Assembly (NCBI GenBank): GCA_039584255.1
Contig: JBDGYE010000009.1
Location: 2,279 to 66,278, forward strand
DNA: 64,000 nucleotides
Source of the DNA: Gemmatimonadota bacterium
GTDB taxonomy: Bacteria; Gemmatimonadota; Gemmatimonadetes; Palauibacterales; Palauibacteraceae
Direction: 5' to 3'
The notes under the pieces were generated by a model. It saw only the letters and a list, made by a program, of their open reading frames with translations. It had not been told where the DNA came from and did not search any database. Within the stretch, counting starts at the first letter, position 1. The number at the start of each line of letters is the position of its first letter. Positions 5,833-64,000 of the stretch are shown here, piece by piece. Both the position numbers and the translations under genes were made by a program.

Positions 5833-5835
5833 CCG

Positions 5836-8638: not shown

Positions 8639-8648
8639 GCCGCCCTCC

Positions 8649-10676: not shown

Positions 10677-10683
10677 CGGGGCC

Positions 10684-11136: not shown

Positions 11137-11188
11137 AAGAAGCCCAAACCTTGTCTCACATCCGGCAACTTCGTCCCGGATGATCGTG

Positions 11189-13461: not shown

Positions 13462-13549
13462 CGACGGTTTCGGTAACGCCGACGCCGCGTGCCGGCGTTG
13501 CGGCGCGATCAGCGGCCTCCTCTGCCCTCACCTGCGGAACAGGCGCGGC

Positions 13550-14092: not shown

Positions 14093-14321
14093 GCTTGCCT
14101 CCTCCTTGAAGGGCGCACCGTACCCACCCCGGCCTCTGATCGATGCACGTGGTTATGCTACATTGCACTCCGTGACGCAACCTTTCTTGAGCACCGGGCC
14201 GCGGCTCCTCCCGAGCGCTGGAAAGCCGGCCCGTCGCCACCTAAGTTCGCAGCCTTGGAGAACCGATTCTCGGGAGGCACGGCGCGTGCGCGCGCTCCCG
14301 ACCCACACAGGAGAGACGGTC

Positions 14322-15539: not shown

Positions 15540-15611
15540 TGGCGGGCGCACGCCGACGGAAGAGCCGCCGGTGTCGGCGCTCCGGCCGCGCGCTGGAGAA
15601 GAGGAGAGCGA

Positions 15612-34805: not shown

Positions 34806-34967
34806 TCCGCCGGGGTGACCGCCCCCCTTCTCACATCATCGGCCGGTCGTCCTCCTCTGCCCACGAGCGGCGCGCCGAGACTCCCCGTCCCTGGCCTCCT
34901 CATTCTACTTTTGCCCGTGCCGACGCGTTCTCTATATTGCGACGCCCATGACACCGGCCCACTCCGA

Positions 34968-41278: not shown

Positions 41279-41926
41279 GTGCGGGTGCCGGAGTTCAATC
41301 GGGCCGAGCTGAGGGCCCTTCTGGTGGCCACGGCGTTGCTGGCCTTGGGAGTCACGGCTCGTCTCGGCTTGGGGCCTGGACCGGCCGCCTTTCACTGGGA
41401 GTCCGCGTCTCCGGCCGAGCGACAGACGAATGCCTCAGCGGTCCATTCCGCCGTTGTTCAGGGAATCGAGCTTGAAGAGACGGCCTCGAGGCCGCTGAAG
41501 GAAGGAGAGAGGCTGGATCCCAACGTGGCTCCGCCGGAGGAACTGCGGCGCCTTCCCGGGATCGGACCTGCGCGAGCCGCGGCGATTGTCCAGGACCGGC
41601 TTCTCAACGGACCCTACCGTACCCTTTCCGACCTTGCGCGTGTGCCAGGAATCGGTCCGGCTAGCACCGAGAGACTGGCTCCGCATCTCTACCTACCGGG
41701 TCCGCGCGCGCTTTCCCTTCCAACTGCCCGGCTGACCGTCGACGTGAATCGGGCACAAATCAACGATTTGGAGCAAATCACGGGAATCGGGCCCGCCCTC
41801 GCTCGACGGATAGTGGACACGCGAAACAGGATAGGCGGTTTCCGGAGCGTCGACGACTTGCTGGAGGTACCGGGTATAGGACCACGAAACCTGCAAAGAA
41901 TCCGCAGTCAGGTACGGGTTCGTTAG
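41279..41926 (+). CDS. comEA: ComEA-like DNA-binding protein with two helix-hairpin-helix modules
   Basis: N-terminal anchor (LLVATALLALGV) followed by two ComEA-type units: LDPNVAPPEELRRLPGIGPARAAAIV...LARVPGIGPAS and VDVNRAQINDLEQITGIGPALARRIV...LLEVPGIGPRNL. Confidence 0.8.
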   Translation: MRVPEFNRAELRALLVATALLALGVTARLGLGPGPAAFHWESASPAERQTNASAVHSAVVQGIELEETASRPLKEGERLDPNVAPPEELRRLPGIGPARAAAIVQDRLLNGPYRTLSDLARVPGIGPASTERLAPHLYLPGPRALSLPTARLTVDVNRAQINDLEQITGIGPALARRIVDTRNRIGGFRSVDDLLEVPGIGPRNLQRIRSQVRVR

Positions 41927-42129
41927 CCCCTCTGCACCTAGTTTTCCGCCGGGAGCGCAGCCCTTCCACCCATTTTCGGGGGTGTGGCACGCGGCCCACA
42001 CCGGGCACGCTCTTTGCGCACCCTCGCTCGCCGCGGGCCGGTGTGAAGGCCCCTCGGGGGCGTCAATCGAACCGCGTTCCGGCGGCGCAACGGCCGCTCG
42101 GAAAGGGCCGATCACGGCGGACTACAGAT

Positions 42130-43842
42130 ATGGCATCCACTTCGCTCGAACAGGAACAGATCGGCGAGCTTCTCCTGCGCGAGAACCTGATCACGCGGGA
42201 CCAACTGGAGCACGCCCTCAAGGAGCAGCGGCAGACCGGAACCCGGCTGGGATTCGCCCTGGTTTCTGCCGGCGCCGTCAGCGAGAATGAGCTGACGCGG
42301 CTGCTGTCGCGTCAGTATCGTGTCCCTGCCGTGGATCTCGCCGAGGTGGAAGTCGATCCAAAGATCCTGAAGCTGGTTCCCGCCGACTTCTCCAGCAAGC
42401 ACCTGGTTCTTCCTCTGCGACGCGTCGGGCGCACTCTCACGGTAGCCATGGCGAGCCCCACCGACCTCAGCGTCATCGACGACCTGAAGTTCATCACGCG
42501 CTTCGACATCGACGCCGTGGTGGCCGGCGAGTACTCGCTCCGGAACGCGATCGACAGATACTACGACGTCAGCAACGACCGTCTTGGCGAGCTTCTCGAG
42601 GAGCTGGAGGAGCAGGAAGTCGAGGTCGTGGAGGAGGAGGAAGAGATTTTCTCCACGACCCAGCTGCAGGCACAGGTAGAGGAAGCGCCGGTCGTTCGGC
42701 TGATCAACGGCTTTCTGACCGACGCGGTTCGCCGCGGAGCCTCAGACATCCACATCGAGCCCTACGAGCGGGAGATGCGAGTACGCTACCGCATCGATGG
42801 CGCCCTTCAGGAGATCATGAAGCCTCCGCTGCGCATGAAGGCGGCGCTCATTTCCCGTGTGAAGATCCTCGCCGACCTCAACATCGCCGAGCGGAGGGTT
42901 CCCCAGGACGGCCGTATCAAGCTGAAGATAGGCGAACGGGTCATCGACTTCCGTGTCTCGACCCTACCGGTGTTGTTCGGTGAGAAGATCGTTCTCCGCA
43001 TCCTCGACAGAGGCAATCTCGCCCTCGACCTCGAAGAGTTCGGGATGGAGCCGAAGGCCGAGGAGGACTTCATCGGCGCGATCTCGAAGCCGTACGGGAT
43101 GGTCCTCGTCACGGGTCCTACCGGTTCCGGTAAGACGACGACGCTGTACAGCGCCCTGAGCCGCATCAACAAGGGCGAGGTCAACATCATGACGGCCGAG
43201 GACCCGGTGGAGTACAACCTGCAAGGGATCAATCAGGTTCAGGTGCGTCCCGAGATCGGGATGAGCTTCGCGGCCGGCCTCAGGGCGTTTCTGAGGCAGG
43301 ACCCGAACATCATCATGGTCGGTGAGATCAGGGATCTCGAGACGGGGGGGATCGCCGTGAAGGCCTCCCTCACAGGCCATCTCGTGCTGTCGACTCTCCA
43401 CACCAATGACGCCGCCTCGACGGTCACACGAATGATCGACATGGGGATCGAGACCTTCAACGTGGCCTCCGCGGTCAATCTGATCACCGCCCAGCGGCTG
43501 GTCCGACGGATCTGCAACAACTGCAAGACAGAGGCGACATACGTGCCGGAAGTGCTTCGGGCCGCAGGCCTCGAGGAGGCCCAGATGGGGAGTATGACCT
43601 TTTACAAGGGAGAGGGCTGCGAGTCGTGCGCCGGCTCGGGCTACGCAGGGCGCCAGGGACTCTACGAGGTGATGCCCATGACTCCGACCCTGCGCCGCAT
43701 GGTACTCCAGGGAGCATCGGGCGCCGAGCTCCAGCAGCAGGCCGTGGCCGAGGGAATGATCACCCTCCGGCAGGACGGCCTGCTGAAGGTACAGCGAGGG
43801 GTGACGACGCTCGACGAGGTTCTAAAGGAGACGGCGCTCTGA
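42130..43842 (+). CDS. pilB: type IV pilus assembly ATPase PilB (GspE family)
   Basis: N-terminal GSPII_E_N-like domain (LITRDQLEHALKEQ), Walker A GPTGSGKTTTLYS, Asp/His boxes, and the tetracysteine motif CNNC...CESC. ATG 42130 is preferred over the longer ORF. Confidence 0.9.
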   Translation: MASTSLEQEQIGELLLRENLITRDQLEHALKEQRQTGTRLGFALVSAGAVSENELTRLLSRQYRVPAVDLAEVEVDPKILKLVPADFSSKHLVLPLRRVGRTLTVAMASPTDLSVIDDLKFITRFDIDAVVAGEYSLRNAIDRYYDVSNDRLGELLEELEEQEVEVVEEEEEIFSTTQLQAQVEEAPVVRLINGFLTDAVRRGASDIHIEPYEREMRVRYRIDGALQEIMKPPLRMKAALISRVKILADLNIAERRVPQDGRIKLKIGERVIDFRVSTLPVLFGEKIVLRILDRGNLALDLEEFGMEPKAEEDFIGAISKPYGMVLVTGPTGSGKTTTLYSALSRINKGEVNIMTAEDPVEYNLQGINQVQVRPEIGMSFAAGLRAFLRQDPNIIMVGEIRDLETGGIAVKASLTGHLVLSTLHTNDAASTVTRMIDMGIETFNVASAVNLITAQRLVRRICNNCKTEATYVPEVLRAAGLEEAQMGSMTFYKGEGCESCAGSGYAGRQGLYEVMPMTPTLRRMVLQGASGAELQQQAVAEGMITLRQDGLLKVQRGVTTLDEVLKETAL

Positions 43843-43900
43843 GTCGGCCGAATGGGCGACCACGGCGCAGCCACGGACAACAGACGAGAGCGATAGCGCC

Positions 43901-44998
43901 ATGAACGACGCGGCACCGATGAACCTGCGCAACCTGCTCGAGGAGATGATCGAGAGGGGCGCGTCGGACCTGCACCTCTCGGCTGGTGAGGTCCCGAAGC
44001 TACGCATCGACGGGCGGTTGACGGGCGGTAGCCATGTCACCGCTCTGACGCCGAGGGACACGCAGTCACTGGCCTACTCGGTGCTGACCGAGCAGCAGAA
44101 GAAGCGCTTCGAGCAGGAGGACGAGCTCGACCTCTCGTTCGCCGTCCAGAACCTCGCCCGGTTCCGGGGCAACGTGTTCAGGCAGCGAGGGACCGTCGCG
44201 ATGGCGATCCGGCAGATCCCCTTCGACATCCTCACGTTTCAGGAGTTGGGCCTGCCTCCCGTGATCGCGACGATGGCGGAGCGGCCTCGGGGGCTTTTAC
44301 TCGTCACGGGCCCCACCGGCTGCGGCAAGTCGACGACGCTGGCGGCCATGATCGACAAGATCAACACAGAGCGTGACGGTCACATCGTCACGGTGGAGGA
44401 CCCCATCGAGTTCGTGCACCGCCACAAGAACTGCCTCGTCAACCAGCGCGAGGTGGGAAGCGACACCGATTCCTTCGGAGCGGCGCTGAAGTACGTGCTG
44501 CGTCAGGACCCGGACGTGATCCTGATCGGCGAGATGCGCGACCTGGAGACGGTCCAGGCCGCGATTACCATCGCGGAGACCGGCCACCTCGCTCTGGCCA
44601 CACTGCACACGAACTCCGCGGCCGAGTCCATCAACCGGATCATCGACGTCTTTCCAGCTCACCAGCAGGATCAGGTTCGGGCACAGCTCTCGTTCGTCCT
44701 CGAGGGAGTGTTGACCCAGACCCTGATTCCGCGGAGGCTCGGAGGGCGCATCGTCGCCTGCGAGATAATGATCGCCACGCCCGCCATTCGCGCCATGATC
44801 CGCGACGACAAGGTGCACCAGATCTACTCCGCCCTCCAGGCCGGGAAGAAATACGGAATGCAGACCCTCAACGACGCCCTGTACTCGCTCTACATGCGCG
44901 ACGAGGTCGCCATGGAAGAGATCATGAGGCTAAGCCCGGATCCGACGGAGCTCAAACGCATGCTCGGCGAGCCCGAGCACGCGGCGGCCGTCGGGTGA
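43901..44998 (+). CDS. pilT: twitching motility ATPase PilT
   Basis: GASDLHLSAG, Walker A GPTGCGKSTT, GEMRDLET, and the AIRAMIRDDKVHQI PilT signature. Confidence 0.9.
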   Translation: MNDAAPMNLRNLLEEMIERGASDLHLSAGEVPKLRIDGRLTGGSHVTALTPRDTQSLAYSVLTEQQKKRFEQEDELDLSFAVQNLARFRGNVFRQRGTVAMAIRQIPFDILTFQELGLPPVIATMAERPRGLLLVTGPTGCGKSTTLAAMIDKINTERDGHIVTVEDPIEFVHRHKNCLVNQREVGSDTDSFGAALKYVLRQDPDVILIGEMRDLETVQAAITIAETGHLALATLHTNSAAESINRIIDVFPAHQQDQVRAQLSFVLEGVLTQTLIPRRLGGRIVACEIMIATPAIRAMIRDDKVHQIYSALQAGKKYGMQTLNDALYSLYMRDEVAMEEIMRLSPDPTELKRMLGEPEHAAAVG

Positions 44999-45049
44999 GC
45001 CAGGAGTCGAGCCGGTCCTGAACAGGCGACGAGGGGAGAGTGACAGACT

Positions 45050-46249
45050 ATGCCAGTGTTCACATACAGCGCGCGAACCGTATCCGGTGAACTCCAGCGC
45101 GATGTAATCGACGTCCCCACGCAGGCGGATGTCGTCGCGTACCTGCGCAGCCAGAAGCTGATCCCGGTCTCCGTCCGAGAGAAACCCAAATCGGTAACGC
45201 TCTCGTTCGGGAATCGGGTGAAGACCCGGGACATTGTGATCATGACGCGACAGTTCGCCACCATGATCAATGCGGGGCTTCCCCTCGTGCAGGCGCTGGA
45301 CATCCTGACGAAGCAGGCTGACAACAAGGTGCTGAAGGCCGCGATCCAGGATGTCCTGAGCGACGTCGAGTCGGGGAACACCCTCGCCGACGCCCTGCGA
45401 GAGCATCCAAAAGTCTTCACGCCCCTGTACGTGAACATGGTCGCGGCAGGTGAAACCGGTGGAATCCTGGACACGATTCTGCTCAGGCTGGCAACCTTCC
45501 TCGAGAAGAACGAGGCCCTGGCTCGGAAAGTCAAGGGGGCCATGATCTACCCTGCCGTAATCAGCGTGGTTGCGGCAATCGCCATCGTCGTACTGCTCCT
45601 GTTCGTCATTCCGACCTTCGAGTCGATGTTCGCAAGCTTCAACCAGACGCTGCCGCTTCCCACCCGGATCGTCATCGGCATGTCGGCGTTCCTCCAGGGA
45701 TACTGGTGGGCGCTGCTGGCCGGCTCATTCTTCGCGGTGTTCGGCTTCCGCCGTTGGACCGCGACGCCGAAAGGACGTCTGGCGTTCGACCGATTCCTGC
45801 TGCGCCTGCCCATTCTGGGCAACCTGGCACGCAAGTCAGCGGTTGCGCGCTTCACCCGTACCCTGGGGACCCTACTCAGCTCGGGAGTGACGATCCTGGA
45901 CGGTCTGGAGATCACGGCCCGCACGTCGGGGAACCGGGTGATCCACGATGCGGTCATGGCGAGCCGACACTCCATCGCCGGCGGTGAGTCCATTGCCGAG
46001 CCGCTCCGGAAGTCCGGTGTGTTTCCACCAATGGTTACGCAGATGATCAACGTCGGAGAGGAGACCGGGGACCTGGATGGCATGCTGTCGAAGGTCGCCG
46101 ACTTCTACGACGACGAAGTCGACGTGGCCGTTGAGGCGCTCCTCAAGGCGATGGAGCCCGCCATGATCGTGGTACTCGGGACCGTGGTCGGCGGCATGAT
46201 CGTGGCCATGTACCTGCCGATCTTCGGGGTGATCAACACGATTCAATAG
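45050..46249 (+). CDS. pilC: type IV pilus inner-membrane platform protein PilC (GspF family)
   Basis: Two GspF repeats (FTRQFATMINAGLPLVQAL / FTRTLGTLLSSGVTILDGL) and three TM segments. The product is 399 aa. Confidence 0.9.
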   Translation: MPVFTYSARTVSGELQRDVIDVPTQADVVAYLRSQKLIPVSVREKPKSVTLSFGNRVKTRDIVIMTRQFATMINAGLPLVQALDILTKQADNKVLKAAIQDVLSDVESGNTLADALREHPKVFTPLYVNMVAAGETGGILDTILLRLATFLEKNEALARKVKGAMIYPAVISVVAAIAIVVLLLFVIPTFESMFASFNQTLPLPTRIVIGMSAFLQGYWWALLAGSFFAVFGFRRWTATPKGRLAFDRFLLRLPILGNLARKSAVARFTRTLGTLLSSGVTILDGLEITARTSGNRVIHDAVMASRHSIAGGESIAEPLRKSGVFPPMVTQMINVGEETGDLDGMLSKVADFYDDEVDVAVEALLKAMEPAMIVVLGTVVGGMIVAMYLPIFGVINTIQ

Positions 46250-46293
46250 GCCGGTCAGCAGTTTGTGAGGACGGGGCGGCCTGGGAGCAGCTG

Positions 46294-46317
46294 GAGGGGC
46301 CCGCTTCGGCGGCCCTC
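46294..46317 (+). terminator. imperfect GC-rich hairpin with TTCG loop downstream of pilC (possible terminator)
   Basis: GAGGGGCCCGC-TTCG-GCGGCCCTC gives a stem with two bulges and a UUCG tetraloop. No U-tract follows, so the evidence is weak. Confidence 0.3.
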
Positions 46318-46448
46318 GTCATTCGGACCTCGGGATCTTCTGTGACCACGCTCCGGGCCGGCAGCGCACCTTTGCCCTTACCCTTAAATTGACAATATCA
46401 TGTGATTTTGTGGTCGGAGTCCGCCGACCTTCCACAACGGCGACGAGA

Positions 46449-46862
46449 GTGATCTCTAAGACAGAGGAATACGCGCTGCGGGCGGTGGTCTGTCTCGCCC
46501 GTCACCACCGGGCTGGCCCCGTGCGGACGGGAGATCTCGCCAGGGAGACCGGCATTCCCTCGAATTACCTGTCGAAGATCCTGCACCAGCTTGGGCGGCA
46601 CGAGGTAGTCGCCTCCGCGCGGGGGAGAAAGGGCGGCTTCAGGCTCGCTCGGGATCCCTCAGAGATCGCCCTCGCCGCGGTCATAGAGCCGTTCGGCTCC
46701 GTCACGGACCGTGAGAGGTGCGTTCTGGGACGTCCCGAGTGCTCCGACGTCAAACCCTGCGGGGCTCACGGCAGGTGGAAGCACGTGAAAGAGCAGATGC
46801 GTGAGTTCTTCGCCCACACCAGTGTGGGCGACGTGATGGAGCGTGGAGAGCGAGGCGACTGA
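46449..46862 (+). CDS. Rrf2-family transcriptional regulator with three-Cys (probable Fe-S) motif
   Basis: VISKTEEYALRAVVCLARHH...IPSNYLSKILHQL winged-helix N-terminus, with cysteines in CVLGRPECSDVKPC (Cx6Cx5C). The longest ORF starts at TTG 46389 inside an AT-rich element. GTG 46449 gives the canonical N-terminus. Confidence 0.75.
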   Translation: MISKTEEYALRAVVCLARHHRAGPVRTGDLARETGIPSNYLSKILHQLGRHEVVASARGRKGGFRLARDPSEIALAAVIEPFGSVTDRERCVLGRPECSDVKPCGAHGRWKHVKEQMREFFAHTSVGDVMERGERGD

Positions 46863-47265
46863 ACCGGCCACCTGTGCTTGTCTGATAGACCTCACCGAAG
46901 CGGAGCTGTCGGACAGGCTCGGTTCGCCGGGCAACCGGAGCCGTGTCGGAGACGATATCTGGCTCATGTTCGCCGCCCGGGGGGTCGAAATGCGGGTTCG
47001 GTGTGGGGCCGCCGACTCGCCACGCGTGGCCTCATGGACCGCTACCTTCGCCACCCCCCGCCGGACTCTGAGGGACGCGGCCAGCGCTGTAGGGCTGTGG
47101 CCGGATGCGGCTCCCGACGCGGACCCGGTCGCCGCCGAGGCACCGCTCCTGAGGCGCGCGCTGCGGTGTCCCCGGACGGGTGCCACCCACACACTCACGG
47201 CGACGGTACGGGGCAGCCGCATCACCCAGATCTCGGTCTTCGACGAGGCACCTGAATGGCTCTGA
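46843..47265 (+). CDS. hypothetical protein (140 aa)
   Basis: GTG start overlapping the Rrf2 end by 20 nt. The composition reads like a real protein (DLTEAELSDRLGSPG...ITQISVFDEAPEWL). No recognised family. Confidence 0.4.
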   Translation: MESEATEPATCACLIDLTEAELSDRLGSPGNRSRVGDDIWLMFAARGVEMRVRCGAADSPRVASWTATFATPRRTLRDAASAVGLWPDAAPDADPVAAEAPLLRRALRCPRTGATHTLTATVRGSRITQISVFDEAPEWL

Positions 47266-47409
47266 TCCCAGGCGCCCACCTCTTGCATCCTGCAATTCCT
47301 TCCCTATCATTGGCTTCGACGAGCAGGCGAAATGCAGGCCGACGGAGGCATACGGGGCCGGCGCCGGCCCCGGCGACAGCCATTACCGAATCAGGGGAAC
47401 GGACCAAGA

Positions 47410-49269
47410 GTGCTTCGTCCGAGCAGGACTGACCGGCGGGCTGCCGCGGCTCTCGAGCCGATGGGCGTGCTCTACTGGATCTACGCCGGCCGCCTCGTCA
47501 TCTCTCTGGTTATCTACGGTCTGGCGGTCCTCGTCGGCGACTTCCTGGCCTCTCTGGCACCGGGGCCGATCGCGACTCAGGTGCGCGCGATTGGCATCAT
47601 CGGGATAACTGCTGCGGCCCTCATCACCCCACTGGCCTATTGGTACAGCCACAGACGGGTCCGGCAGATTTCTCGGAGCTTCCTCTACTCCCAGGCCCTT
47701 CTCGACGTCGTCCTGGCCAACGGCATCGTCCATGTCACCGGCGGGAGCCAGAGTCCATTCGTCTCGCTGTTCATAGGCCTCGCTGCCGCATACGCCCTGG
47801 TACTCCCGCTTCCGTCGGCGGTTCTGGTAGCGCTGGCCACGGGTGCCCTCTACCTGCTGGACAACCTCGTGGCCTTCCCGGACCAGGTGAGCACTCTGGC
47901 CTTGCTGTTGCAGGTGGCCGTGTTCACGCTCGTGGCTCTGGTCACCAGCCTGGTCGGTGCGCGGCTCCGGGACGTGCGGAAGGAGCTCCGCACCGTGGAG
48001 GGAGAGCTGCGCAGACTGCGGCTCGACACGGCCGACATCCTGAGGATCATCCCTTCCGGCGTCCTGACTCTGGACTCCGAAGGACGCCTTGCCTACATGA
48101 ACCTCGCCGCGGCCGAGCTGCTGGACCTGGAGGTGACGGAGCTGCTGGGTCGTGGGATCGTGTCCCGCCTGGAGACCAGGGCTCCCGGGGTCGCGGCCGC
48201 GATCCAGGAGACGCTCGGCACCGGACGGCGGATCCGGGACCGGGAGGCCGAGCTCCTGCCACCGGAGCTCGCCGACCCGATCGACGGAGACTCACTCTAC
48301 GAGCTGAGGCCGGGTGTCCCCGTCGCCGTGAGCACGACCGTGGTCCAGGAGGCTGGAGCGGGGCCGTCGCACGTGGTGCTGCTTCAGGACCTGCGGGCGA
48401 GCCGGCAGCTCGAAGATCTCCGGCTTCGGACCGGCCGGCTCGAGGCGGTGGCGGAGCTATCGGCCTCGCTCGCCCACGAGCTCAAGAATCCCATGGCGTC
48501 GGTCAGAAGCGCCGTCGAGCAGCTGTGCGAGCGTGCCCGTGAGGACGAGGACGACGCGGTGTTGGGAAGACTGATCCTTCGAGAGAGCGACCGCATGGGG
48601 AAGATCCTGGGCGAATTCAGCGACTTCGCCCGCGTGGATGTGGCCCAAAGGAAGCCGGTCAACGTGGAGAAGCTGCTGCGGAACGTCACGGAAACGGCGC
48701 AGCGACATCCCGCGGCGGAGGCACGGGCCACGATCGACGTTGACGTTGCCGACGAGCTCACCGGGCTGTGGGGTGACCCGGAGCTGTTGCACCGGGTAGT
48801 GCTCAACCTCGTGCTTAACGCACTTCAGGTCGGAGATCCGGAACGACCGGTGACGGTGAGGATCGTGGCCGACTCGCTCCGCCCGGATCTGGTCCCGAGC
48901 GGGATGGCACTTCGCAACCCGGTTCGCATCCGGGTCATCGACGACGGTCCCGGCATAGACCCGCAGGATCTACCGAGAATCTTCGATCCCTTCTACACGC
49001 GCCGCGAAGGAGGAAGCGGCCTCGGGTTGTCCATCGCTCATCGGGCGGTCCAGGCACATGGAGGCACTCTGATCGCGACTTCGACGCCCGGCCGCGGTGC
49101 CACCTTCATCATGGTCCTGCCGCGGCGGTCGGTTCTAAGTCCGCCTCCACGGTTCGAGGACCGGAGAGGCGAGCTCGCGGAAGCCGCGGAGGAAGCCGTG
49201 CGGGCCGGCGCCGCGGGTGCTCCTGTGGGGTCCGTCGGCGCGAACGATACGGAGGACGAGAGCGCGTGA
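47410..49269 (+). CDS. pilS: sensor histidine kinase, PilS-like
   Basis: About 6 N-terminal TM helices, a PAS-like segment, the H-box SASLAHELKNPMASV, an N/G-box region, and GSGLGLSIAHRAVQAHGGTL. Start is GTG 47410 or ATG 47461. The 47332 extension is Arg-rich and unlikely. Confidence 0.75.
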   Translation: MLRPSRTDRRAAAALEPMGVLYWIYAGRLVISLVIYGLAVLVGDFLASLAPGPIATQVRAIGIIGITAAALITPLAYWYSHRRVRQISRSFLYSQALLDVVLANGIVHVTGGSQSPFVSLFIGLAAAYALVLPLPSAVLVALATGALYLLDNLVAFPDQVSTLALLLQVAVFTLVALVTSLVGARLRDVRKELRTVEGELRRLRLDTADILRIIPSGVLTLDSEGRLAYMNLAAAELLDLEVTELLGRGIVSRLETRAPGVAAAIQETLGTGRRIRDREAELLPPELADPIDGDSLYELRPGVPVAVSTTVVQEAGAGPSHVVLLQDLRASRQLEDLRLRTGRLEAVAELSASLAHELKNPMASVRSAVEQLCERAREDEDDAVLGRLILRESDRMGKILGEFSDFARVDVAQRKPVNVEKLLRNVTETAQRHPAAEARATIDVDVADELTGLWGDPELLHRVVLNLVLNALQVGDPERPVTVRIVADSLRPDLVPSGMALRNPVRIRVIDDGPGIDPQDLPRIFDPFYTRREGGSGLGLSIAHRAVQAHGGTLIATSTPGRGATFIMVLPRRSVLSPPPRFEDRRGELAEAAEEAVRAGAAGAPVGSVGANDTEDESA

Positions 49270-49300
49270 CGCCGTCACGCGCCGCAACCGAGGAGCCAAG

Positions 49301-50665
49301 ATGCGCGACAAGCCCGTTCTGCTGCTGATCGACGACGAGCAGAGTCTGGTCGAGACACTCGAGGTGCTCCTGAAGCGCGAGGGATTTGACGTGCTAGCGG
49401 AGCTGTCTGGCGCCACCGGCCTGAAGCGGTACAAAGAAGACAGGCCGGACATCGTGCTGTCCGACGTTCGGATGCCGAAGATGAGCGGAATCGAGGTGCT
49501 GGAGGAGATTCGCAAAGCCAACCCGGACACCCCCGTGGTGCTCATGACCGCGCAGGCCTCGCTTACATCGGCCATCCAGGCCGTGAACCTGGGCGCGACC
49601 CACTACATCCAGAAACCGTTCAAGAACGAAGAGCTGATCGCGATCTTGAACCGCTCGTTGGACTGGGGGCGGCTGAAGAAGGAGAACACGGGCCTCAAGC
49701 GCGAGCTGAAGCGCCAGCAGACCCTCAAGAGCGGACGGCCCATCGGCGTCAGCCCCACGTTCGAGAGCTCGCTGAAGCTGGCCGACAGCGTCGCCGACAG
49801 CGAGAGTACGATCCTGATAGCCGGCGAGAGTGGCACGGGAAAAGAGGTCTTCGCCCGTTACATTCACGACCTCTCGCCCCGGGCCAACCGGCGCTTTCTG
49901 TCGTTGAACTGCGGCGCTCTGCCCGAGGGGCTGCTCGAGTCAGAGCTGTTCGGCCATGTGAAGGGCAGCTTCACCGGCGCCGTGAAGGACAAGGAAGGAC
50001 TGTTCGTGGCGGCTTCCGGAGGGACCTTCTTCCTGGATGAGGTCGGGGAGATGGCCCCGTCGACTCAGGTGAAGCTCCTGCGGGTTCTGCAGCAGAGAGA
50101 GGTAATCCCGGTGGGCGCCACCGAGTCTATTCCGGTTGACGTGAGGCTGATCGCCGCCACCAACCGGGAGCTGGAGCGGGACATCGAAGAAGGACGCTTC
50201 CGCCGGGATCTCTTCTACCGGCTCAACGTCATCACGATCGATCTCGCGCCGCTCCGGGACCGGCCCGAAGACGTCCAGCTTCTCACGGAGCACTTCCTGG
50301 GGCGTCACGCCGGCCCGGACGGTAAGGCTAAGAAGGTGTCGCCCAAAGCGATGGCCGTGCTCCAGGGATACCACTGGCCGGGCAACGTGCGAGAATTGGA
50401 GAACGTCGTCGAGAGAGCCGTGGTGCTGACTCCGGGCGCCAACATCAAGCCGGACGCGCTGCCGGCACGCCTGACGGAAGCGCCGCCGGAGCCCCTGATT
50501 CAGGACAGGCCGGCACCGAATCCGCCCCTGGAGATCATCGAGCGGGCCTACATCGAGCACGTGCTCCGGGCGGAGGGGGGCAACAAGACGCGCGCGGCCG
50601 AGGTTCTCGGAATCGATCCGAGCACTCTTTACCGCAAGATCAAGCGGTACGACCTTGAGGGTTGA
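49301..50665 (+). CDS. pilR: sigma-54-dependent response regulator, PilR/NtrC family
   Basis: Receiver domain (LLIDDE...DIVLSDVRMPKMSG), AAA+ domain (GESGTGKEVFA, ESELFGHVKGSFTGA, GTFFLDEV), and a Fis-type HTH (NKTRAAEVLGIDPSTLYRKIKRY). ATG 49301 is preceded by AGGAG. Confidence 0.85.
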   Translation: MRDKPVLLLIDDEQSLVETLEVLLKREGFDVLAELSGATGLKRYKEDRPDIVLSDVRMPKMSGIEVLEEIRKANPDTPVVLMTAQASLTSAIQAVNLGATHYIQKPFKNEELIAILNRSLDWGRLKKENTGLKRELKRQQTLKSGRPIGVSPTFESSLKLADSVADSESTILIAGESGTGKEVFARYIHDLSPRANRRFLSLNCGALPEGLLESELFGHVKGSFTGAVKDKEGLFVAASGGTFFLDEVGEMAPSTQVKLLRVLQQREVIPVGATESIPVDVRLIAATNRELERDIEEGRFRRDLFYRLNVITIDLAPLRDRPEDVQLLTEHFLGRHAGPDGKAKKVSPKAMAVLQGYHWPGNVRELENVVERAVVLTPGANIKPDALPARLTEAPPEPLIQDRPAPNPPLEIIERAYIEHVLRAEGGNKTRAAEVLGIDPSTLYRKIKRYDLEG

Positions 50666-50795
50666 GCGCGGCCTTTGCATACCGGAGGCCGGCCTTGCAA
50701 CCTGCAACGACCGGCCTTTCCCTTCCGGTCCCGTGTTCCGCCTCTCTGCTTCGTAAGTGTATATGATGTTTAGTTTTATGTTCGGACCGCCAGAA

Positions 50796-50811
50796 CGGCA
50801 CGGGGGTTGCC
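50796..50811 (+). promoter_or_regulatory. sigma-54 (-24/-12) promoter upstream of the pilin gene
   Basis: CGGCACGGGGGTTGCC matches TGGCACG-N4-TTGC, with GG at 50797-50798, GC at 50809-50810 and exact 10-nt spacing. It lies about 90 nt upstream of the pilin ATG and directly downstream of pilS-pilR. Confidence 0.6.
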
Positions 50812-50902
50812 TACATGCACAGCAGGAGGTCTTGGCCTCCACCGGTGATATCAGCTCGAACCGGATAATTTAACGTAGCGACTCCTAACTGATGGAGGAC
50901 CA

Positions 50903-51226
50903 ATGCTCCGCGACACGAAGGGCTTCACGCTGATCGAGCTGCTGATCGTCGTCGTGATCATCGGCATTCTGGCCGCGATCGCGATTCCGCAGTTCGCCAG
51001 CACGAAGGAGAAGGGCGTACTTTGCAGACAATCAGTCGTACGGCAATGCCGCCACGGTCATGACGGCGGGCAACTTCACGACGAGCACGGGCATGGCGAT
51101 AGGGGCCGGCGGCACGGCCGGCGGTTATGCCGTGACCGCTTCGCACACCAGCTCGGGCAACACCTACTACGTGGTAGTTGGCTCGGGAAGCTCGACCGAG
51201 GGCAAGATCCTGAAGCAGTAAGCTGA
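50903..51226 (+). CDS. pilA: type IV major pilin (PilA-like); reading frame apparently broken by a 1-nt insertion near 51013-51016 (true stop probably 51219-51221)
   Basis: GGAGG at 50894-50898. The class III signal is MLRDTKG|FTLIELLIVVVIIGILAAIAIPQF, with Glu+5. After ...STKEKG the listed frame becomes Arg/His-rich nonsense. The +1 frame instead reads YFADNQSYGNAATVMTAGNFTTSTG...YYVVVGSGSSTEGKILKQ*. Confidence 0.8.
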   Translation: MLRDTKGFTLIELLIVVVIIGILAAIAIPQFASTKEKGVLCRQSVVRQCRHGHDGGQLHDEHGHGDRGRRHGRRLCRDRFAHQLGQHLLRGSWLGKLDRGQDPEAVS

Positions 51227-51260
51227 CGAGCTTGCCACCGGATACTTGTCAGCGTAAGAA

Positions 51261-51295
51261 AAGGGCGCGGCGGGTGATGAGCCCGCTGCGCCCTT
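51261..51295. terminator. strong GC hairpin between pilin gene and glycosyltransferase operon
   Basis: 14-bp stem AAGGGCGCGGCGGG (51261-51274) / CCCGCTGCGCCCTT (51282-51295) with one G-U pair and a 7-nt loop. The T-rich tract (TTTTCTTAC) lies on the minus-strand side, not the plus side. Confidence 0.45.
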
Positions 51296-51329
51296 CGAGC
51301 ATCCGGGCGGCACCTGACCGGCGGGGTCC

Positions 51330-53729
51330 ATGAGTCCAGCAGCGGACAAAGAGTCGCCTCGCTCCGGCGCCGCGGCCGCCACCACGGTGCTGTGCGGCCT
51401 TGCCGCACTGCTGTTCGCGCCTGTGCTGGTTGGCGGCGAGACCTTCTTCAGCCGCGACATCGCTCCGTTCTTCTACCCGATGAAGCATTACCTCGCGGAG
51501 TCGGTGCGCAGCGGAGGGCTTCCCCTTTGGAACCCCTGGATCGTCAACGGCGAGCCGTTCTTCGCCTCGTTGCAGCCGGGGCTCCTCTACCCCCCCAACC
51601 TGCTCCTGTACGGACTTCCCCTGCCGCTGGCATTCAACCTTCTCCTGGTCCTGCATTATCCCCTGGCGGGAGTCGGCATGTACGTGCTCCTCCGGCGCTG
51701 GGGCCACGGCTGGGCGGGCGCCGTCCTGGGGGCCGTAGCCTTCATGGTGGGCGGCTTCTACGTGTCGCTGGGGAACTTCCTCAACAACCTCCAGGCGGTG
51801 GCCTGGACACCGTGGCTTCTGGTGGCCTGGGACAGGGTGATGATGGGGCGCCGGCCGCGCGACGTAACGCTGTTCGCTGTCGTCTGCGGCGCGGCCTTCT
51901 TGGGGGGAGAGCCCCAGATGTTGGGCATCGCGCTACTCCTGCTGCTGGTCCACGGTCTCCTGAGGGTCGAGCGGCGCCCGGCCGGCCGGGGCGGCCAGCT
52001 GTTCGCCTTCGCCTTGGGAGGAGTGCTCGCGATCTGCCTGGTGGCCGTCCAGTTCGTGCCCTTCGTCGAGTACATCGGCCAATCGGTTCGCACGCTTCCC
52101 ATCGAGCTGGAGTACTCGGCCTCGCGTTCGCTTACGCCGCTGGGAACCCTGGGCGTGTTCGTTCCACCTGTCCTGGCCGGCGGCGCGCACGGTTTCACCA
52201 CGCGTTACCTTCCGGCCAGCGAGGTGCCCTGGCTGCTTAGCGTCTACGTGGGCGTAGTCGTTCTCCTGTACGCCGCCCTCGGGGTGTTCCTCCGCCGCGG
52301 GCGGCGGTGGGCGCTGTTCTGGACCGTGACGGCGGCCCTCGGCATTCTGCTCGCGCTGGGCAGCTACAGTCCGCTGTTCAAGGCGCTGTTCGGCTGGATT
52401 CCGCCGCTCCGGGCCTTCCGCTACCCGGAGAAGTTCTTCCTGCTGACCGCCGTAGCCGTGCCAGTGATGGCTGCTCAGGGGTTCGATAGCTGGCTAGGCC
52501 GGTTTCGCGATGCGGGTACCGAGTCACGGCGTCTGGACCGCGCGACGTGGTCCCTGCTGGTTGCGGCGCTGCTCGCCTATGGCGCGACGGCGCTCATAAT
52601 GGTGGCAGATGAGGGCGTCCTGGCTACGGCCTGCGGGGGCTGGCTCGAAGGAGCGCTGCTGTGCTCCGATTCGGCCGAGGCACAGCGACTGTACGCCCTG
52701 CAGTCGCTCGTGCCCATCGCCTTGATCGCGGTTCTGGCGGCCGTGCAGGCCCTGCTCAGGGCAGGCCGGCTGCGACCGGCGGCCGCCGCCTGGCTCGTGC
52801 TGGCGTGCTGCGCCGGCGACCTGATGATCGCTCACCGGGTCGTCAATCCATCGGTTCCCTCCGACATCTACACCACGCCCCCGTGGACAGCAAAGGTGCT
52901 GGACCGTGCCGACGCCGGCCCCGAGGAGTACAGGTTCCGAGGCTCCCCTCACATCGCCGCCATGGGGAGCATCGTCACGGTCCAGGGGGCCTGGGAGCTC
53001 ACCAACATGTACCTGGACTACCAGACCATGGGGCCGAACGTAGGGCAGATGTTCGGTCACCCGATGCAGGACGGTCTCCAGGGCGTCGAGCTCCAGTCGG
53101 TGGCGCTCACCAACGAGGCGGCGATGAGGGCCTGGGCCGTTGATCCGCTGAGATTCCTGCAGGCGATGAACGTACGGTATTACGCCGACGCGACGGTCGA
53201 AGCGGACGCGATGACAAGTCTGCGCCTGATCGAATCCAACCCGGAGCTCCCGATCAGGGTGTTCGAGGTGCCGGATCCCCTTCCGCGAGTCTACTTGGTG
53301 CCCCGATACGAGCTCGCCGCTGGACCGGAAGAGGCGCTGCGCCGGACGCTGGACGAGACCTTCGTCCTGGGGGCCGCGGTCGTGCTGGAGCAGGAACCGG
53401 CGCTGAAGCCGGCGCCGAAGGCCCGCGGAGAGGTCTTGGAAAGGGCGTTCGAGACCAACCGTGTGAGGCTGCGTATCCGGACGTCGGGACCGATGCTGCT
53501 GGTCCTCAACGACCGTTTCTATCCAGGCTGGACAGCGACGCTGCTCGGGCACCGGCTGCCTATCCTGAGGGCAAACGGAGTGTTCCGGGCCGTCGCCGTT
53601 CCCGGCGGCGAGCGCGAGGTCGTATTCGAGTACGCTCCGGCCAGCATCCGGATCGGCGCCTGGATCAGCCTCGCCACGCTGCTCCTCCTGCTGGGCGTCT
53701 ACCGCCTGTCCCGGAGAAGGGCAGGATGA
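51330..53729 (+). CDS. YfhO-family polytopic membrane protein (GT-C fold glycosyltransferase)
   Basis: 799 aa. The N-terminus ETFFSRDIAPFFYPMKHYLAESVRSGGLPLWNPWIVNGEPFFASLQPGLLYPPNLL is the YfhO-type pattern. Many TM helices precede a large C-terminal extracytoplasmic domain and a terminal TM. Its stop overlaps the next start (ATGA). Confidence 0.6.
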   Translation: MSPAADKESPRSGAAAATTVLCGLAALLFAPVLVGGETFFSRDIAPFFYPMKHYLAESVRSGGLPLWNPWIVNGEPFFASLQPGLLYPPNLLLYGLPLPLAFNLLLVLHYPLAGVGMYVLLRRWGHGWAGAVLGAVAFMVGGFYVSLGNFLNNLQAVAWTPWLLVAWDRVMMGRRPRDVTLFAVVCGAAFLGGEPQMLGIALLLLLVHGLLRVERRPAGRGGQLFAFALGGVLAICLVAVQFVPFVEYIGQSVRTLPIELEYSASRSLTPLGTLGVFVPPVLAGGAHGFTTRYLPASEVPWLLSVYVGVVVLLYAALGVFLRRGRRWALFWTVTAALGILLALGSYSPLFKALFGWIPPLRAFRYPEKFFLLTAVAVPVMAAQGFDSWLGRFRDAGTESRRLDRATWSLLVAALLAYGATALIMVADEGVLATACGGWLEGALLCSDSAEAQRLYALQSLVPIALIAVLAAVQALLRAGRLRPAAAAWLVLACCAGDLMIAHRVVNPSVPSDIYTTPPWTAKVLDRADAGPEEYRFRGSPHIAAMGSIVTVQGAWELTNMYLDYQTMGPNVGQMFGHPMQDGLQGVELQSVALTNEAAMRAWAVDPLRFLQAMNVRYYADATVEADAMTSLRLIESNPELPIRVFEVPDPLPRVYLVPRYELAAGPEEALRRTLDETFVLGAAVVLEQEPALKPAPKARGEVLERAFETNRVRLRIRTSGPMLLVLNDRFYPGWTATLLGHRLPILRANGVFRAVAVPGGEREVVFEYAPASIRIGAWISLATLLLLLGVYRLSRRRAG

Positions 53730-55381
53730 CTCCCACCCAGAGCGAGCTCCGGACCTTGGGATTCAGCCTCTTCGGAGCGGCGTTCCTCGCCGTTCTTCTT
53801 ACGGCGGGCGACTACGGCATCGCCAGCGATGTAGGCAACTACTTCTACTCCTCGTTGCGGCAACTGGCCTGGGCGAAGGAGCTGGGCGCGTCGATCCTGG
53901 CTGGCGATCCCGGTGCCGCCTTGGACCGCTCGGTAGTCTTCGACCACTGGCGATGGTACCCGGAGCGCATACCCCATCCCCCGCTGTCACGGGAGCTGAG
54001 CGGGCTCTCATATGCTCTTCTCGGCGGGCCACTGGATCCGCTGACCGCGTATCGAGTGGCGGTGATGGTAGCCTTCGCACTCCTCGTCGCGGGGTGTGGC
54101 GTCTTCACGGCCTGGGCGGCGCGGTCGATAGTGGCGGGGACCGCCGCGGGCCTGGCCCTCCTTACCGTGCCGGCGCTGTTCGCCCACGGACACCTGGCGC
54201 ACACGGACGTCTTCCTGACCGTCTTCTGGTTCGGATGTGCTGCCAGCCTGTTCGTCTCGACCCGCGAGAGGAAGGCGAGTTGGCTGGCCGCTGCGGGAAT
54301 CCTGTTCGGCTGCGCGGCGGCAACGAAGTTCTCCGGGCTCCTGCTGGTTCCGGTGGCGGCGGTGTGGCTCCTGGCCCGGCGTCGCCCGGACATCTACGCC
54401 TTTCTCGCATTCGGCCTCATCGGGCTCGTGACCTTCTTTCTGGTGAACCCCGTGCTCTGGGTAGATCCCGCCCTGGGGCTGCGGGACTACTTCGAGGCCG
54501 GCCTGTTCCGCTCTGACGCCAGGGTTACCCGCATCTCCACCGAGTATCTCGGCAGCATCTACGACTTCCGGCCGCCGTGGCACTACCCGTTCGTGTGGAC
54601 GGCCATCGTCATGCCGCTCCCGATTCTCGCGGCGACCGTCGCGGGTCTCACCAGCAGGCGGGACCGTCCGCTGCTGCGCCTCACGGGCCTGAACGTAGCC
54701 GTACTGTACGGCGCCCTCATGCTGCCGGCGGCTCCGATGCACGACGGTATCCGACTGTTCCTACCGGCCTTCGCTTTCTGGGCCGTGCTCGCCGGGGTGG
54801 GCACCGGACGCCTGAGCGAGCTAGCCACCGCCAGAGCGCCGGAGCGGATGACCTCGTGGATCCCTGCGGCCGTCACCCTGCTCGTGTTCGCCCTGCCGGC
54901 GCTTCGCACGGTACAGTACCACCCATTCCAGCTCTCCTACTTCAACGCCCTGGTTGGTGGCGTGAGAGGTGCCCAGGAGCGTGGCCTCGAGGTAACGAAT
55001 CTCAAGGAGGTTCTCAGCCGCGAAGTGCTGGCGGACCTGGCGGTAGCGATCGAGCCCGGCACGGTTGTCGATCCCGGCTTCTTTCTCGAGGAAATCTGCT
55101 TCTACCAGGCCGTGGGGTGGGCTCCGCGCGAGTGGACGGCCGAGACGACACTGGAGCGCGAGGATCTAGAGGAAGGACTGGCCCTGGCGTGCGAGGGGCC
55201 CAACAGCTTCGTTTACATTCCACTGGACCGACCCGCGCGCGAGCCCGCGTTCGTCTTCGTTCTCAACCGCCGGGCTCAATGGCGGTCCATCGAGTGGGCC
55301 CTGTACGATTTCAGCGATCGACCGTTCTACGAAGTTGCGGTGCGGGGAGTGCCCCTGATGAGGGTATACCGGGTCCGATGA
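53726..55381 (+). CDS. GT-C fold membrane glycosyltransferase, PMT_2/GT39 (ArnT/Pmt-like) family
   Basis: 551-aa polytopic protein with motifs IPHPPLSRE, HLAHTDV, AATKFSG, and PMHDGIRLFLPAF. It is a paralog of the next gene. Both junctions are ATGA overlaps. Confidence 0.65.
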   Translation: MTPTQSELRTLGFSLFGAAFLAVLLTAGDYGIASDVGNYFYSSLRQLAWAKELGASILAGDPGAALDRSVVFDHWRWYPERIPHPPLSRELSGLSYALLGGPLDPLTAYRVAVMVAFALLVAGCGVFTAWAARSIVAGTAAGLALLTVPALFAHGHLAHTDVFLTVFWFGCAASLFVSTRERKASWLAAAGILFGCAAATKFSGLLLVPVAAVWLLARRRPDIYAFLAFGLIGLVTFFLVNPVLWVDPALGLRDYFEAGLFRSDARVTRISTEYLGSIYDFRPPWHYPFVWTAIVMPLPILAATVAGLTSRRDRPLLRLTGLNVAVLYGALMLPAAPMHDGIRLFLPAFAFWAVLAGVGTGRLSELATARAPERMTSWIPAAVTLLVFALPALRTVQYHPFQLSYFNALVGGVRGAQERGLEVTNLKEVLSREVLADLAVAIEPGTVVDPGFFLEEICFYQAVGWAPREWTAETTLEREDLEEGLALACEGPNSFVYIPLDRPAREPAFVFVLNRRAQWRSIEWALYDFSDRPFYEVAVRGVPLMRVYRVR

Positions 55382-63660: not shown

Positions 63661-64000
63661 GCAGCGCGCGCTGGTTCATGCCGACGGTCTTATGTGTGGT
63701 GTGCGGCGCCTCCGCCGGGATGGCGCAGGAGCCGGCCGAAGACGAGTCCGCGGAGTCGCAGGGTTCTCCGGTGGTGGAGCGGGAGGTCTTCACCTATCCC
63801 GGGGCGGCACGCCGGGATCCGTTCGAGCCGCTCGACGCCGCCGGTGAGTTCGGACCGCGCTTCGAGGACCTGGAGCTGACCGGAATCATTTACAGCCCGC
63901 AGGCGGGCAGCATCGTAGTGCTTGTCGATCGGGCCACCCACAGGCGCTACCGCGTTTGGGAGGGTGACACGATCGGGGGGGCCAAGCTCGTCGGCGTTCG
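63657..64000 (+). CDS. pilP: PilP-like pilus assembly lipoprotein (3' end outside window)
   Basis: This ORF is not in the supplied track because it has no stop before the window end. ATG 63657 overlaps the pilO stop (ATGA). My translation is MSSARWFMPTVLCVVCGASAGMAQE...RRDPFEPL...LELTGIIYSPQAGSIVVLVD...YRVWEGDTIGGAKLVGV, which fits the PilP pattern. Confidence 0.6.
   Translation, partial: MSSARWFMPTVLCVVCGASAGMAQEPAEDESAESQGSPVVEREVFTYPGAARRDPFEPLDAAGEFGPRFEDLELTGIIYSPQAGSIVVLVDRATHRRYRVWEGDTIGGAKLVGV

Follow-up and report, generated by a model that had tools for sequence, protein, structure and literature searches.

Glycosylation of type IV pilins shapes phage resistance, adhesion, bundling, and immune evasion, and to our knowledge the enzymes responsible are known for only a few proteobacteria. 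We analysed a stretch of 64,000 nucleotides from a Gemmatimonadota bacterium (assembly GCA_039584255.1, contig JBDGYE010000009.1, positions 2,279 to 66,278), hereafter the window, which has a G+C content of 63–70%. Within a type IV pilus locus of this window, the major pilin gene pilA and a hairpin are directly followed by five plus-strand open reading frames (ORFs), ORF1 to ORF5, which span 51330–60025 and which a preliminary description, made from the sequence without database searches, had correctly placed. We propose, with a probability of about 0.6, that these genes form a cassette for periplasmic O-glycosylation whose dedicated substrate is the type IV pilin.

Several described systems invite comparison. 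In streptococci, GtrB together with the YfhO-family protein PgtC2, and PgfS together with PgfM1, O-glycosylate Ser/Thr-rich regions of extracytoplasmic proteins (PMC11092751). In these systems, including the Streptococcus mutans Pgf system, and in the scheme proposed here, a GtrB/PgfS-type enzyme of glycosyltransferase family 2 (GT2) makes an undecaprenyl-phosphate (Und-P) monosaccharide, and a YfhO-family GT-C enzyme then acts outside the membrane, passing the sugar to regions rich in Ser/Thr on membrane-anchored proteins (PMC11092751). Pgf likewise combines one GT2 gene (PgfS) with two YfhO-type GT-C genes (PgfM1 and PgfM2), beside the genes of its substrates (PMC11092751). However, the streptococcal acceptors are disordered tails of PrsA, PBP1a, and adhesins in Gram-positive Firmicutes and not pilins (PMC11092751), whereas the present cassette adds PMT_2-clan GT-C proteins and sits in a diderm type IV pilus operon.

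A pilin is the acceptor in Pseudomonas aeruginosa, where the GT-C enzyme TfpW, encoded beside pilA, glycosylates the pilin from lipid-linked D-arabinofuranose (D-Araf), modifying several Ser/Thr residues in the periplasm from a polyprenyl-phosphate monosaccharide (bioRxiv 10.1101/2020.04.19.049825). ORF1 resembles the TfpW gene in lying directly 3' of pilA, and the TfpW locus, too, has a terminator or hairpin behind pilA, which tunes how strongly the accessory gene is expressed (Kus et al. 2008, as cited in PMC11841053). As described, TfpW is set apart from ORF1 by a C-terminal TPR and by its decaprenyl-type D-Araf donor, made by DprE1/DprE2 homologs; ORF1, in contrast, has a beta-rich domain and a terminal transmembrane (TM) helix, no TPR, and a YfhO signature, its predicted donor synthase is GtrB-like, and three further GT-C genes are coupled to it. 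TfpO/PilO and PglL also carry out pilin- or protein-directed periplasmic O-glycosylation, often from a gene beside pilA, but these Wzy_C proteins have a different fold and transfer an undecaprenyl-diphosphate oligosaccharide en bloc, and the cassette has no Wzy_C. The actinobacterial Ppm1/Pmt and eukaryotic PMT (GT39) systems pair a polyprenyl-phosphate synthase with a GT-C enzyme bearing an acidic first external loop; ORF3 shares with PMT an invariant D51-E52 pair and a Pfam PMT match above cut-off. Unlike Ppm1/Pmt, however, ORF2 and ORF3 have no MIR domain and ArnT as nearest fold, ORF2 lacks the Glu of this pair, and ORF4 is GtrB-like. Finally, Bacillus subtilis CsbB/YfhO and the Gtr systems combine a GT2 lipid–sugar synthase with an external GT-C enzyme as well, but their acceptors are teichoic acids or O-antigen, without pilus linkage, and Gtr systems usually include a GtrA flippase, which the five-gene block does not (PMC5836110, PMC11127046).

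Linkage of ORF1 to pilin genes

The main evidence for pilin glycosylation is synteny. When one genome per GTDB species was scanned with the ORF1 alignment, 42 loci were returned (here and below, taxon names are those of record titles and source annotations). In Gemmatimonadota, the upstream sequence was long enough for assessment at 36 loci, and in all 36 ORF1 is immediately preceded by pilA, with ORF1 identity down to 47%. ORF2, ORF3, and ORF4 follow ORF1 wherever the contig continues, and after them come minor pilins and pilMNO, so that the order, where contigs reach, is pilBTC-pilSR-pilA-ORF1-2-3-4-(variable)-minor pilins-pilMNO. Thus, of the conserved neighbourhood envisaged in the preliminary description (pilA-YfhO-PMT-PMT-GT2-GTC), the portion from pilA to ORF4 is found in every assessable relative and ORF5 only in part of them. 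The block without pilus genes, a case named there as evidence to the contrary, was not seen inside the clade. One locus (L013, CAXMRU010000280.1), titled Akkermansiaceae, is a full Gemmatimonadota-type locus with the same order (ORF1 58%, pilB/pilT/pilM 83–87%) and is probably mis-binned.

The linkage reaches far beyond Gemmatimonadota, which supports the pilin-directed reading of the preliminary description more strongly than could be known from the window alone. Searching 1.84 billion representative proteins with an ORF1-family profile yielded 22,179 relatives at E <= 1e-30, hundreds of them full-length at ~800 aa and scoring 380–680 bits. Eleven members were sampled: eight lie directly 3' of a pilin gene (L047–L054, the last of which carries a protein named Omnitrophica by NCBI), two have pilins no more than 3.5 kb away (L045 and L055, the latter a Saganbacteria locus that also holds PMT_2 and GT2 genes and another YfhO gene), and the contig of the eleventh (L044) is 5.5 kb long and shows no pilin gene. 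A class III signal of the G/FTLIE type is present in all these pilins. We also scanned metagenomes with one C-terminal YfhO motif as the seed and took the best 80 of >600 motif matches, which gave loci with 21–32% identity to ORF1. A pilin gene lies <= 700 nt upstream on the same strand in 20 of the 64 loci with >= 500 nt of upstream sequence, these 20 spanning 39–64% GC, and no pilin motif was found within 3.5 kb on either side in the other 44.

How these genes are related was assessed with a rough neighbour-joining distance tree of 95 sequences, built on a MAFFT alignment. The pilin-linked genes form two neighbouring clades, in which the linkage is direct at 32 of 35 assessable loci and a pilin lies within 3.5 kb at 2 more; of about 45 assessable loci that fall outside them, in the wider YfhO superfamily, none is pilin-linked. 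The cross-phylum relatives are 21–32% identical to ORF1 and span 39–67% GC, with names that point to Omnitrophota and Saganbacteria; the source names found among relatives include Omnitrophica, Margulisbacteria/Saganbacteria, Firestonebacteria, Chloroflexota, and Eremiobacterota. In seven loci of about 50% GC (L056–L061 and L068), homologs of ORF2, ORF3, and ORF4 lie beside the pilin-linked gene on the opposite strand, and the same enzyme set has therefore been kept together in a different arrangement. Two Desulfobacterales loci (L038 and L041) contain ORF1 homologs of 30% identity flanked by PMT_2+TPR proteins and no pilus genes; we do not count them as evidence against the linkage because the tree places both outside the pilin-linked clades. 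In L038 (4746–12247), the distant homolog follows three membrane proteins with PMT_2 and/or TPR, which makes the locus a multi-GT-C cluster, with no pilus genes within 10 kb.

Several relatives have unusual architectures. Seven YfhO-like proteins of 1300–1400 aa (P0473, P0479, P0482, P0490, P0493, P0496, and P0500) are fused to Wzx/MurJ-type flippase domains (PF01943, PF13440, PF03023), and the three that carry a source name come from Dehalococcoidia/Anaerolineae (Chloroflexota); such fusions hint at a direct functional partnership between this GT-C family and a flippase for lipid-linked sugars. Four others (P0241, P0248, P0260, and P0292; 1500–1640 aa) contain two to five regions that match the ORF1 profile, and at least P0248, which has a full-length match in its second half, resembles two YfhO-like modules fused in tandem. 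Tandem pairs of separate YfhO genes occur in L045, L048, and L055. The first of these loci (3689–16995 of a 403-kb contig) encodes two Wzy_C+TPR proteins, a methyltransferase, two YfhO-like proteins, and two tandem pilins. The Wzy_C+TPR proteins are possibly PglL/TfpO-like O-oligosaccharyltransferases, which would put both candidate classes of pilin glycosyltransferase side by side.

The five predicted glycosyltransferases

The families that the preliminary description had assigned to the five proteins were all recovered by hidden Markov model searches. ORF1 matches Pfam YfhO (PF09586) with 46 bits against a cut-off of 28.5, the best stretch being C-terminal only, and PF09586 was recorded beforehand on nearly all ORF1 homologs; NCBIfam has no family for ORF1, ORF2, or ORF3. 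Sequence searches of the PDB with single sequences or family profiles of ORF1, ORF3, ORF5, and an extra membrane protein found in related loci (see below) returned only TMEM260 at E=4. Since these searches were unusable, the question of the fold was settled with AlphaFold2 models and Foldseek. The ORF1 model, based on a 49-homolog alignment (mean predicted local distance difference test score, pLDDT, 91.7; predicted template modelling score 0.91), consists of a polytopic N-terminal module, a beta-rich periplasmic domain, and a terminal TM helix. Its matches in the PDB are AftD (9.4e-9), ArnT (2.4e-6), STT3, PglB, Emb, and Pmt4, all with probability 1.0, and for both ORF1 and ORF3 every PDB structure matched at E <= 0.001 is a GT-C enzyme, in line with the fold first assigned to them. 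R42-D43, just after the first TM helix (TM1), is invariant in 49 close sequences, and D43 is likewise invariant in 13 cross-phylum sequences. Together with a set of Pro/Trp/His/Arg positions, D43 remains invariant down to ~23% identity, which is typical of a retained active site. ORF1 is further tied to the GtrB-type ORF4 genetically, in one translationally coupled operon. We consider ORF1 a candidate pilin-directed transferase.

ORF4 is by sequence a GtrB-type polyprenyl-phosphate GT2, and its family can be considered settled. It matches Pfam Glycos_transf_2 (PF00535) with 109 bits and aligns over residues 5–311 with the solved Synechocystis GtrB (5EKP; E=1.8e-82, 280 bits in the PDB search), more strongly than with ArnC (E=1.8e-50, 175 bits) and with 5MLZ (Ppm1/DPM synthase), which reaches only 3.8e-18. 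Among NCBIfam models the best is PgfS (241 bits, cut-off 500), followed by ArnC (184 bits, cut-off 529). The motif LDGDLQDPPE starts at residue 92, with the DxD at residues 94–96, and hydropathy indicates two C-terminal TM segments (230–248 and 265–283). The earlier assignment to a GtrB/CsbB/Ppm1-type GT2 is thus upheld and narrowed to GtrB and PgfS as closest.

ORF2 and ORF3 are PMT_2-clan GT-C enzymes. ORF2 scores 36.4 bits with PMT_2 and 19.8 bits with PMT (PF02366), below the cut-off of 22.7, and ORF3 scores 37.5 bits with PMT_2 and 38.3 bits with PMT, above that cut-off; source annotations suggest that PMT_2, whose cut-off both proteins exceed, is a clan-level model shared with ArnT-like enzymes. 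The two proteins are 32% identical over their full length (E=1e-58) and share the motifs HPP, [AG]TKF[ST]G, and HDG[IV]RLFLP, and ORF3 has TWDEPHYF at residue 49. All motifs quoted in the preliminary description, LDGDLQDPPE of ORF4 included, are present, except that ORF3 reads GTKFTG and not ATKFTG. D29 and D35 after TM1, HPP, TKF, and HDG-R-LFLP are invariant across 16 ORF2 orthologs, and W50-D51-E52 is invariant across 47 ORF3 sequences. ORF2 has D35-V36 at the position aligned to ORF3 D51-E52 and so lacks the Glu of the DE pair. The ORF3 model (47-homolog alignment, pLDDT 90.7) has only a small alpha/beta C-terminal domain, and Foldseek ranks ArnT first (2.3e-7, TM-score about 0.5), then STT3/PglB and ALG9/12, with Pmt4 in 21st place (2.1e-4). 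No MIR (beta-trefoil) domain was matched in either protein (551 and 558 aa). The absence of MIR, the nearest fold being that of ArnT, and the missing Glu in ORF2 rule out a strict PMT/GT39 identity; of the initial PMT_2/GT39-like label, the PMT_2 part stands.

ORF5 is probably, judged by its sequence, an accessory polytopic GT-C glycosyltransferase, as first suggested. Its PMT_2 score of 28.5 bits is just above the cut-off (26.1), 13 of 13 orthologs match PMT_2 as well (best 4.9e-11), it scores 41 bits with the LA_3751/3752 family of NCBIfam, and D117 after the third TM helix is invariant. Compared with the ORF3 family by hhalign, ORF5 reached a probability of 9.5%. Profile–profile comparisons of ORF3 with ORF5, ORF1 with ORF3, and the extra membrane protein with ORF5 were not significant. 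ORF2 and ORF3 are the one pair whose paralogy could be demonstrated.

The 3' end of the cassette is variable. ORF5 occurs in about 21 related loci, an extra polytopic membrane protein of ~510 aa is encoded between ORF4 and ORF5 in 17 loci (e.g., L004, 16615–18144), and 7 loci contain a gene for an S-adenosylmethionine methyltransferase of ~280 aa (e.g., L002, 16650–17471). Two of the 12 scanned members of the ~510-aa family match GT87, which is a GT-C family. The conserved unit is therefore ORF1–ORF4, to which the window adds one accessory gene. This 3' end looks like a hot spot of glycan diversification, variation between species being what is expected if a surface glycan diversifies.

Locus layout, expression signals, and the pilin

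The features of the locus are listed in Table 1. All four junctions within the cassette are 4-nt start/stop overlaps, exactly as first read (ATGA at 53726, ATGA at 55378, GTGA at 57051, and TTGA at 58028), identical overlaps are kept in relatives such as L004, and a GGAGG lies 7 nt upstream of the ORF4 GTG start. A Pfam scan of ORF1–ORF5 found no Wzy_C or GtrA domain, in agreement with the preliminary description, and no TPR. Downstream, the minor pilins and pilMNOP expected from that description are represented by a GspH-like minor pilin gene and by pilM, pilN, and pilO; the second small ORF has no Pfam match. Both small genes are conserved 3' of the cassette in relatives. On the other side, pilS and pilR lie directly 5' of pilA, and an Rrf2-family regulator gene between pilC and pilS (46389–46862) is shared by some, but not all, of the related loci. 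Further upstream are a gene for a ComEA-like helix-hairpin-helix protein, directly before pilB (41279–41926), and a 2132-aa ORF with a SprA_N domain, of the type IX secretion/gliding translocon family (34815–41213).

Table 1. Coordinates of features of the type IV pilus locus, as positions in the window
Feature	Position	Strand	Length	Remarks
pilB, pilT, pilC, Rrf2 regulator, pilS-like kinase, pilR sigma-54 activator	42043..50665	+		5' of pilA
Sigma-54-type promoter GGCAC-N5-TTGC	50797..50810	+		~105 nt 5' of pilA
pilA, major type IV pilin gene	50903..51222	+		Frameshifted by extra G at 51013
GC-rich hairpin	51261..51295	+		After pilA; 15-bp stem, 5-nt loop; fold z-score -3.7
ORF1	51330..53729	+	799 aa	YfhO-like GT-C of pilin-linked subfamily, candidate pilin-directed transferase
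ORF2	53726..55381	+	551 aa	PMT_2-clan GT-C glycosyltransferase, ORF3 paralog
ORF3	55378..57054	+	558 aa	PMT_2/ArnT-like GT-C glycosyltransferase, invariant W-D-E after TM1
ORF4	57051..58031	+	326 aa	GtrB-type polyprenyl-phosphate glycosyltransferase (GT2)
ORF5	58028..60025	+	665 aa	Accessory PMT_2-clan polytopic membrane protein, probable GT-C, in part of clade
GspH-like minor pilin gene	60059..60601	+		N_methyl and GspH matches
Second small ORF after cassette	60598..61152	+		Kept in relatives, no Pfam match
pilM, pilN, pilO (pilus alignment subcomplex)	61280..63660	+		PilM_2 191 bits; PilN and PilO called in L001

The sigma-54-type motif GGCAC-N5-TTGC has two sites in the whole 64 kb, one at pilA and one just before pilB (42004–42017, 26 nt 5' of the pilB start). 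In 13 of 16 related loci examined, GGCA[CT]-N5-TTGC lies 101–109 nt upstream of pilA; it is displaced in L029 and was not found in L028, where the pilA start is uncertain. The hairpin that the preliminary description had noticed after the pilin gene could be confirmed, and an equivalent stem of 11–17 bp, different in sequence and in some cases followed by a T-run, occurs 3' of pilA in 33 of 33 related loci examined. The hairpin probably acts on the glycosyltransferase genes behind it as an attenuator or leaky terminator. A sigma-70 scan found no promoter between 50600 and 61400, a terminator scan gave weak in-gene matches only, and no sigma-54-type site precedes ORF1, so a separate promoter for the cassette cannot be claimed. 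Since the hairpin ends 34 nt before the ORF1 start codon and no promoter was found for the cassette, read-through from pilA is the most economical reading, and the cassette is most likely transcribed in this way at a lower level than pilA. Pilin accessory genes of Pseudomonas are expressed by read-through from pilA (PMC11841053).

The pilA gene of the window is broken by a 1-bp insertion. A contig of assembly GCA_039588855.1 (L001), 99.95% identical to window positions 46965–64000, does not have the extra G, and its pilA (3939–4256) encodes an intact prepilin of 105 aa (MLRDTKG/FTLIELL...KILKQ). The pilin so repaired is Cys-free and has a Ser/Thr/Gly-rich C-terminal domain; the earlier count of 18 Ser/Thr (27%) and no Cys in its C-terminal 67 aa is accurate. 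The pilins of relatives are 121–123 aa long, with conserved FTTS and TASH motifs and, in the periplasmic domain, 21–31% Ser/Thr. A stretch of 18 residues of the alpha1-helix (FDATAKSD[IV]RNAMSAMEA), present in all 31 other pilins of the clade, is absent from pilA of both near-identical assemblies. In L001 it is ORF3 that is damaged, by an 85-bp deletion (window 56781–56865; around 9815 in L001) that truncates the protein to 469 aa; no direct repeat >4 nt was found flanking it. Each of the two assemblies thus carries one disruptive change in the locus. The defects of pilA and ORF3 may reflect population variants, a locus that is decaying in this lineage, or errors of assembly; for pilA, a short form of the pilin is a further possibility.

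Proposed function and its alternatives

From the gene linkage we infer that the pilin is the acceptor, and pilin glycosylation is the best-supported function of the cassette. The pilin-directed O-glycosylation module of the preliminary description is well matched by families, folds, and linkage, its acceptor being the part that follows from gene position. In the scheme that we propose, ORF4 would use a nucleotide sugar to load a single sugar onto undecaprenyl phosphate at the cytoplasmic face of the membrane, a protein encoded outside the block would flip the lipid-linked sugar, and ORF1, with its invariant Asp just after TM1, would attach it to Ser/Thr in the periplasmic domain of the pilin while this is still anchored in the membrane, before assembly. 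ORF2, ORF3, and ORF5 would lengthen the glycan or add branches to it, drawing on the same donor, or would act at other sites. Expression of pilA would start at the conserved PilR/sigma-54 promoter, with the five cassette genes translationally coupled. One donor synthase serving four transferases makes a homo-oligomeric glycan with several linkages the simplest guess, which would resemble the TfpW arabinan or mycobacterial mannan extension. Some of the GT-C proteins may also be non-catalytic partners or use donors made elsewhere in the genome.

Several points weigh against this proposal. Gene adjacency does not identify the acceptor, and characterised acceptors of PMT_2/ArnT-like enzymes include lipid A, just as those of YfhO proteins include teichoic acids (PMC5836110). 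One GT2 gene beside four GT-C genes is unusual, no flippase gene is encoded within the five-gene block, and ORF4 scores below the cut-offs of the PgfS and ArnC equivalogs, which would indicate its sugar. In many pilin-linked relatives the YfhO-like gene is the only one of the set, so that the role of ORF1 has better support than those of ORF2, ORF3, and ORF5. The phylogeny is a rough neighbour-joining one, the metagenome sample was selected with a single motif, and the identifiable carriers are all uncultured metagenome-assembled genomes or metagenome contigs. Finally, a shortened and frameshifted pilin here and an ORF3 deletion in the sister assembly could mean that the locus is decaying, or reflect assembly errors.

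The strongest competing explanation, to which we give a clearly smaller but real share of probability, is a general system for periplasmic protein O-glycosylation, acting on many Ser/Thr-rich extracytoplasmic proteins, with the pilin as one or a minor substrate and the location of the genes reflecting co-regulation. The streptococcal GtrB/PgtC2 and actinobacterial Ppm1/Pmt precedents do act on many proteins (PMC11092751), four GT-C genes could mean several acceptor classes, and no pilin-recognition domain is detectable in ORF1–ORF5. However, ORF1-type genes stay right after the pilin gene while all their other neighbours change, for which a general system offers no reason, and the read-through layout behind the pilA hairpin is conserved too.

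Decoration of an envelope polymer (lipid A/lipopolysaccharide core, O-antigen, or an exopolysaccharide for pilus-dependent motility) with single Und-P sugars, in the manner of Gtr, CsbB/YfhO, or ArnC/ArnT, seems to us unlikely. It would agree with the resemblance of ORF4 to ArnC (E=1.8e-50; 184 bits with the NCBIfam model), with ArnT as best structural match of ORF3, with the glycosylation of teichoic acids by the first characterised YfhO proteins (PMC5836110), and with the Desulfobacterales homologs and most of the wider YfhO superfamily not being beside pilins. Against this, ORF4 is nearer to GtrB (280 bits) than to ArnC (175), with 184 bits where the ArnC equivalog demands 529; the ORFs scanned in the window, which covers 64 kb of the genome, include no ArnA/B/D/E/F-like or polysaccharide-export genes; and linkage to pilins is peculiar to the two clades in which ORF1 falls. 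The ArnC score and the missing partner genes in the window also led us to reject the lipid A aminoarabinose pathway as the principal function. That ORF1, and perhaps ORF2, is instead a pilin accessory or assembly factor like TfpX/TfpY/TfpZ, a degenerate GT-C scaffold binding the pilin in the membrane, is very improbable: non-enzymatic accessory genes do hold the same post-pilA position in Pseudomonas (PMC11841053) and the Glu of the DE pair is missing from ORF2, but D43 and the Pro/Trp/His/Arg positions of ORF1 do not vary down to about 23% identity, and the operon includes, by translational coupling, the gene for a donor synthase of the GtrB type.

Beyond the dedicated pilin cassette of the window, we give about an even chance to a wider proposal, in which ORF1 represents a widespread, unrecognised class of pilin-dedicated YfhO-type GT-C enzymes, encoded directly after the major pilin gene in several phyla (Gemmatimonadota, Omnitrophota, Margulisbacteria/Saganbacteria, and further uncultured lineages of 39–67% GC). 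Such a class would be a third independent solution beside the Wzy_C-type TfpO/PglL and the TPR-bearing TfpW, and its expansion in Gemmatimonadota would be a periplasmic line of four to six enzymes that builds and varies a pilin oligosaccharide stepwise from a single undecaprenyl-phosphate sugar. The preliminary description knew of no described pilus locus with such an architecture, and we found none in the literature either. In a literature search whose coverage leaves out most subscription journals, we found nothing that links YfhO-type GT-C proteins to pilins and nothing on pilin glycosylation in Gemmatimonadota. Thermus pili are glycosylated, in reports that name no transferase for them (PMC7203116, PMC13039148); we found no description of a family 39/ArnT enzyme acting with a pilin or of Thermus TT_C0859, a suspected relative that is encoded 3' of pilA4. 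The chemistry is thus of a known kind, and the enzyme subfamily, its cross-phylum pilin linkage, and the multi-GT-C cassette appear to be new.

If these proposals are true, the pilin-linked YfhO-type GT-C would be a candidate pilin glycosylation enzyme for a large part of bacterial diversity, and the GtrB/YfhO route of protein O-glycosylation would extend from Firmicutes to diderms. The cassettes, which range from one GT-C gene to five and in some cases include a methyltransferase, form a natural series that could show how glycans are built in the periplasm from lipid-linked monosaccharides, and their enzymes could be useful for engineering glycans onto pilin-like carriers.

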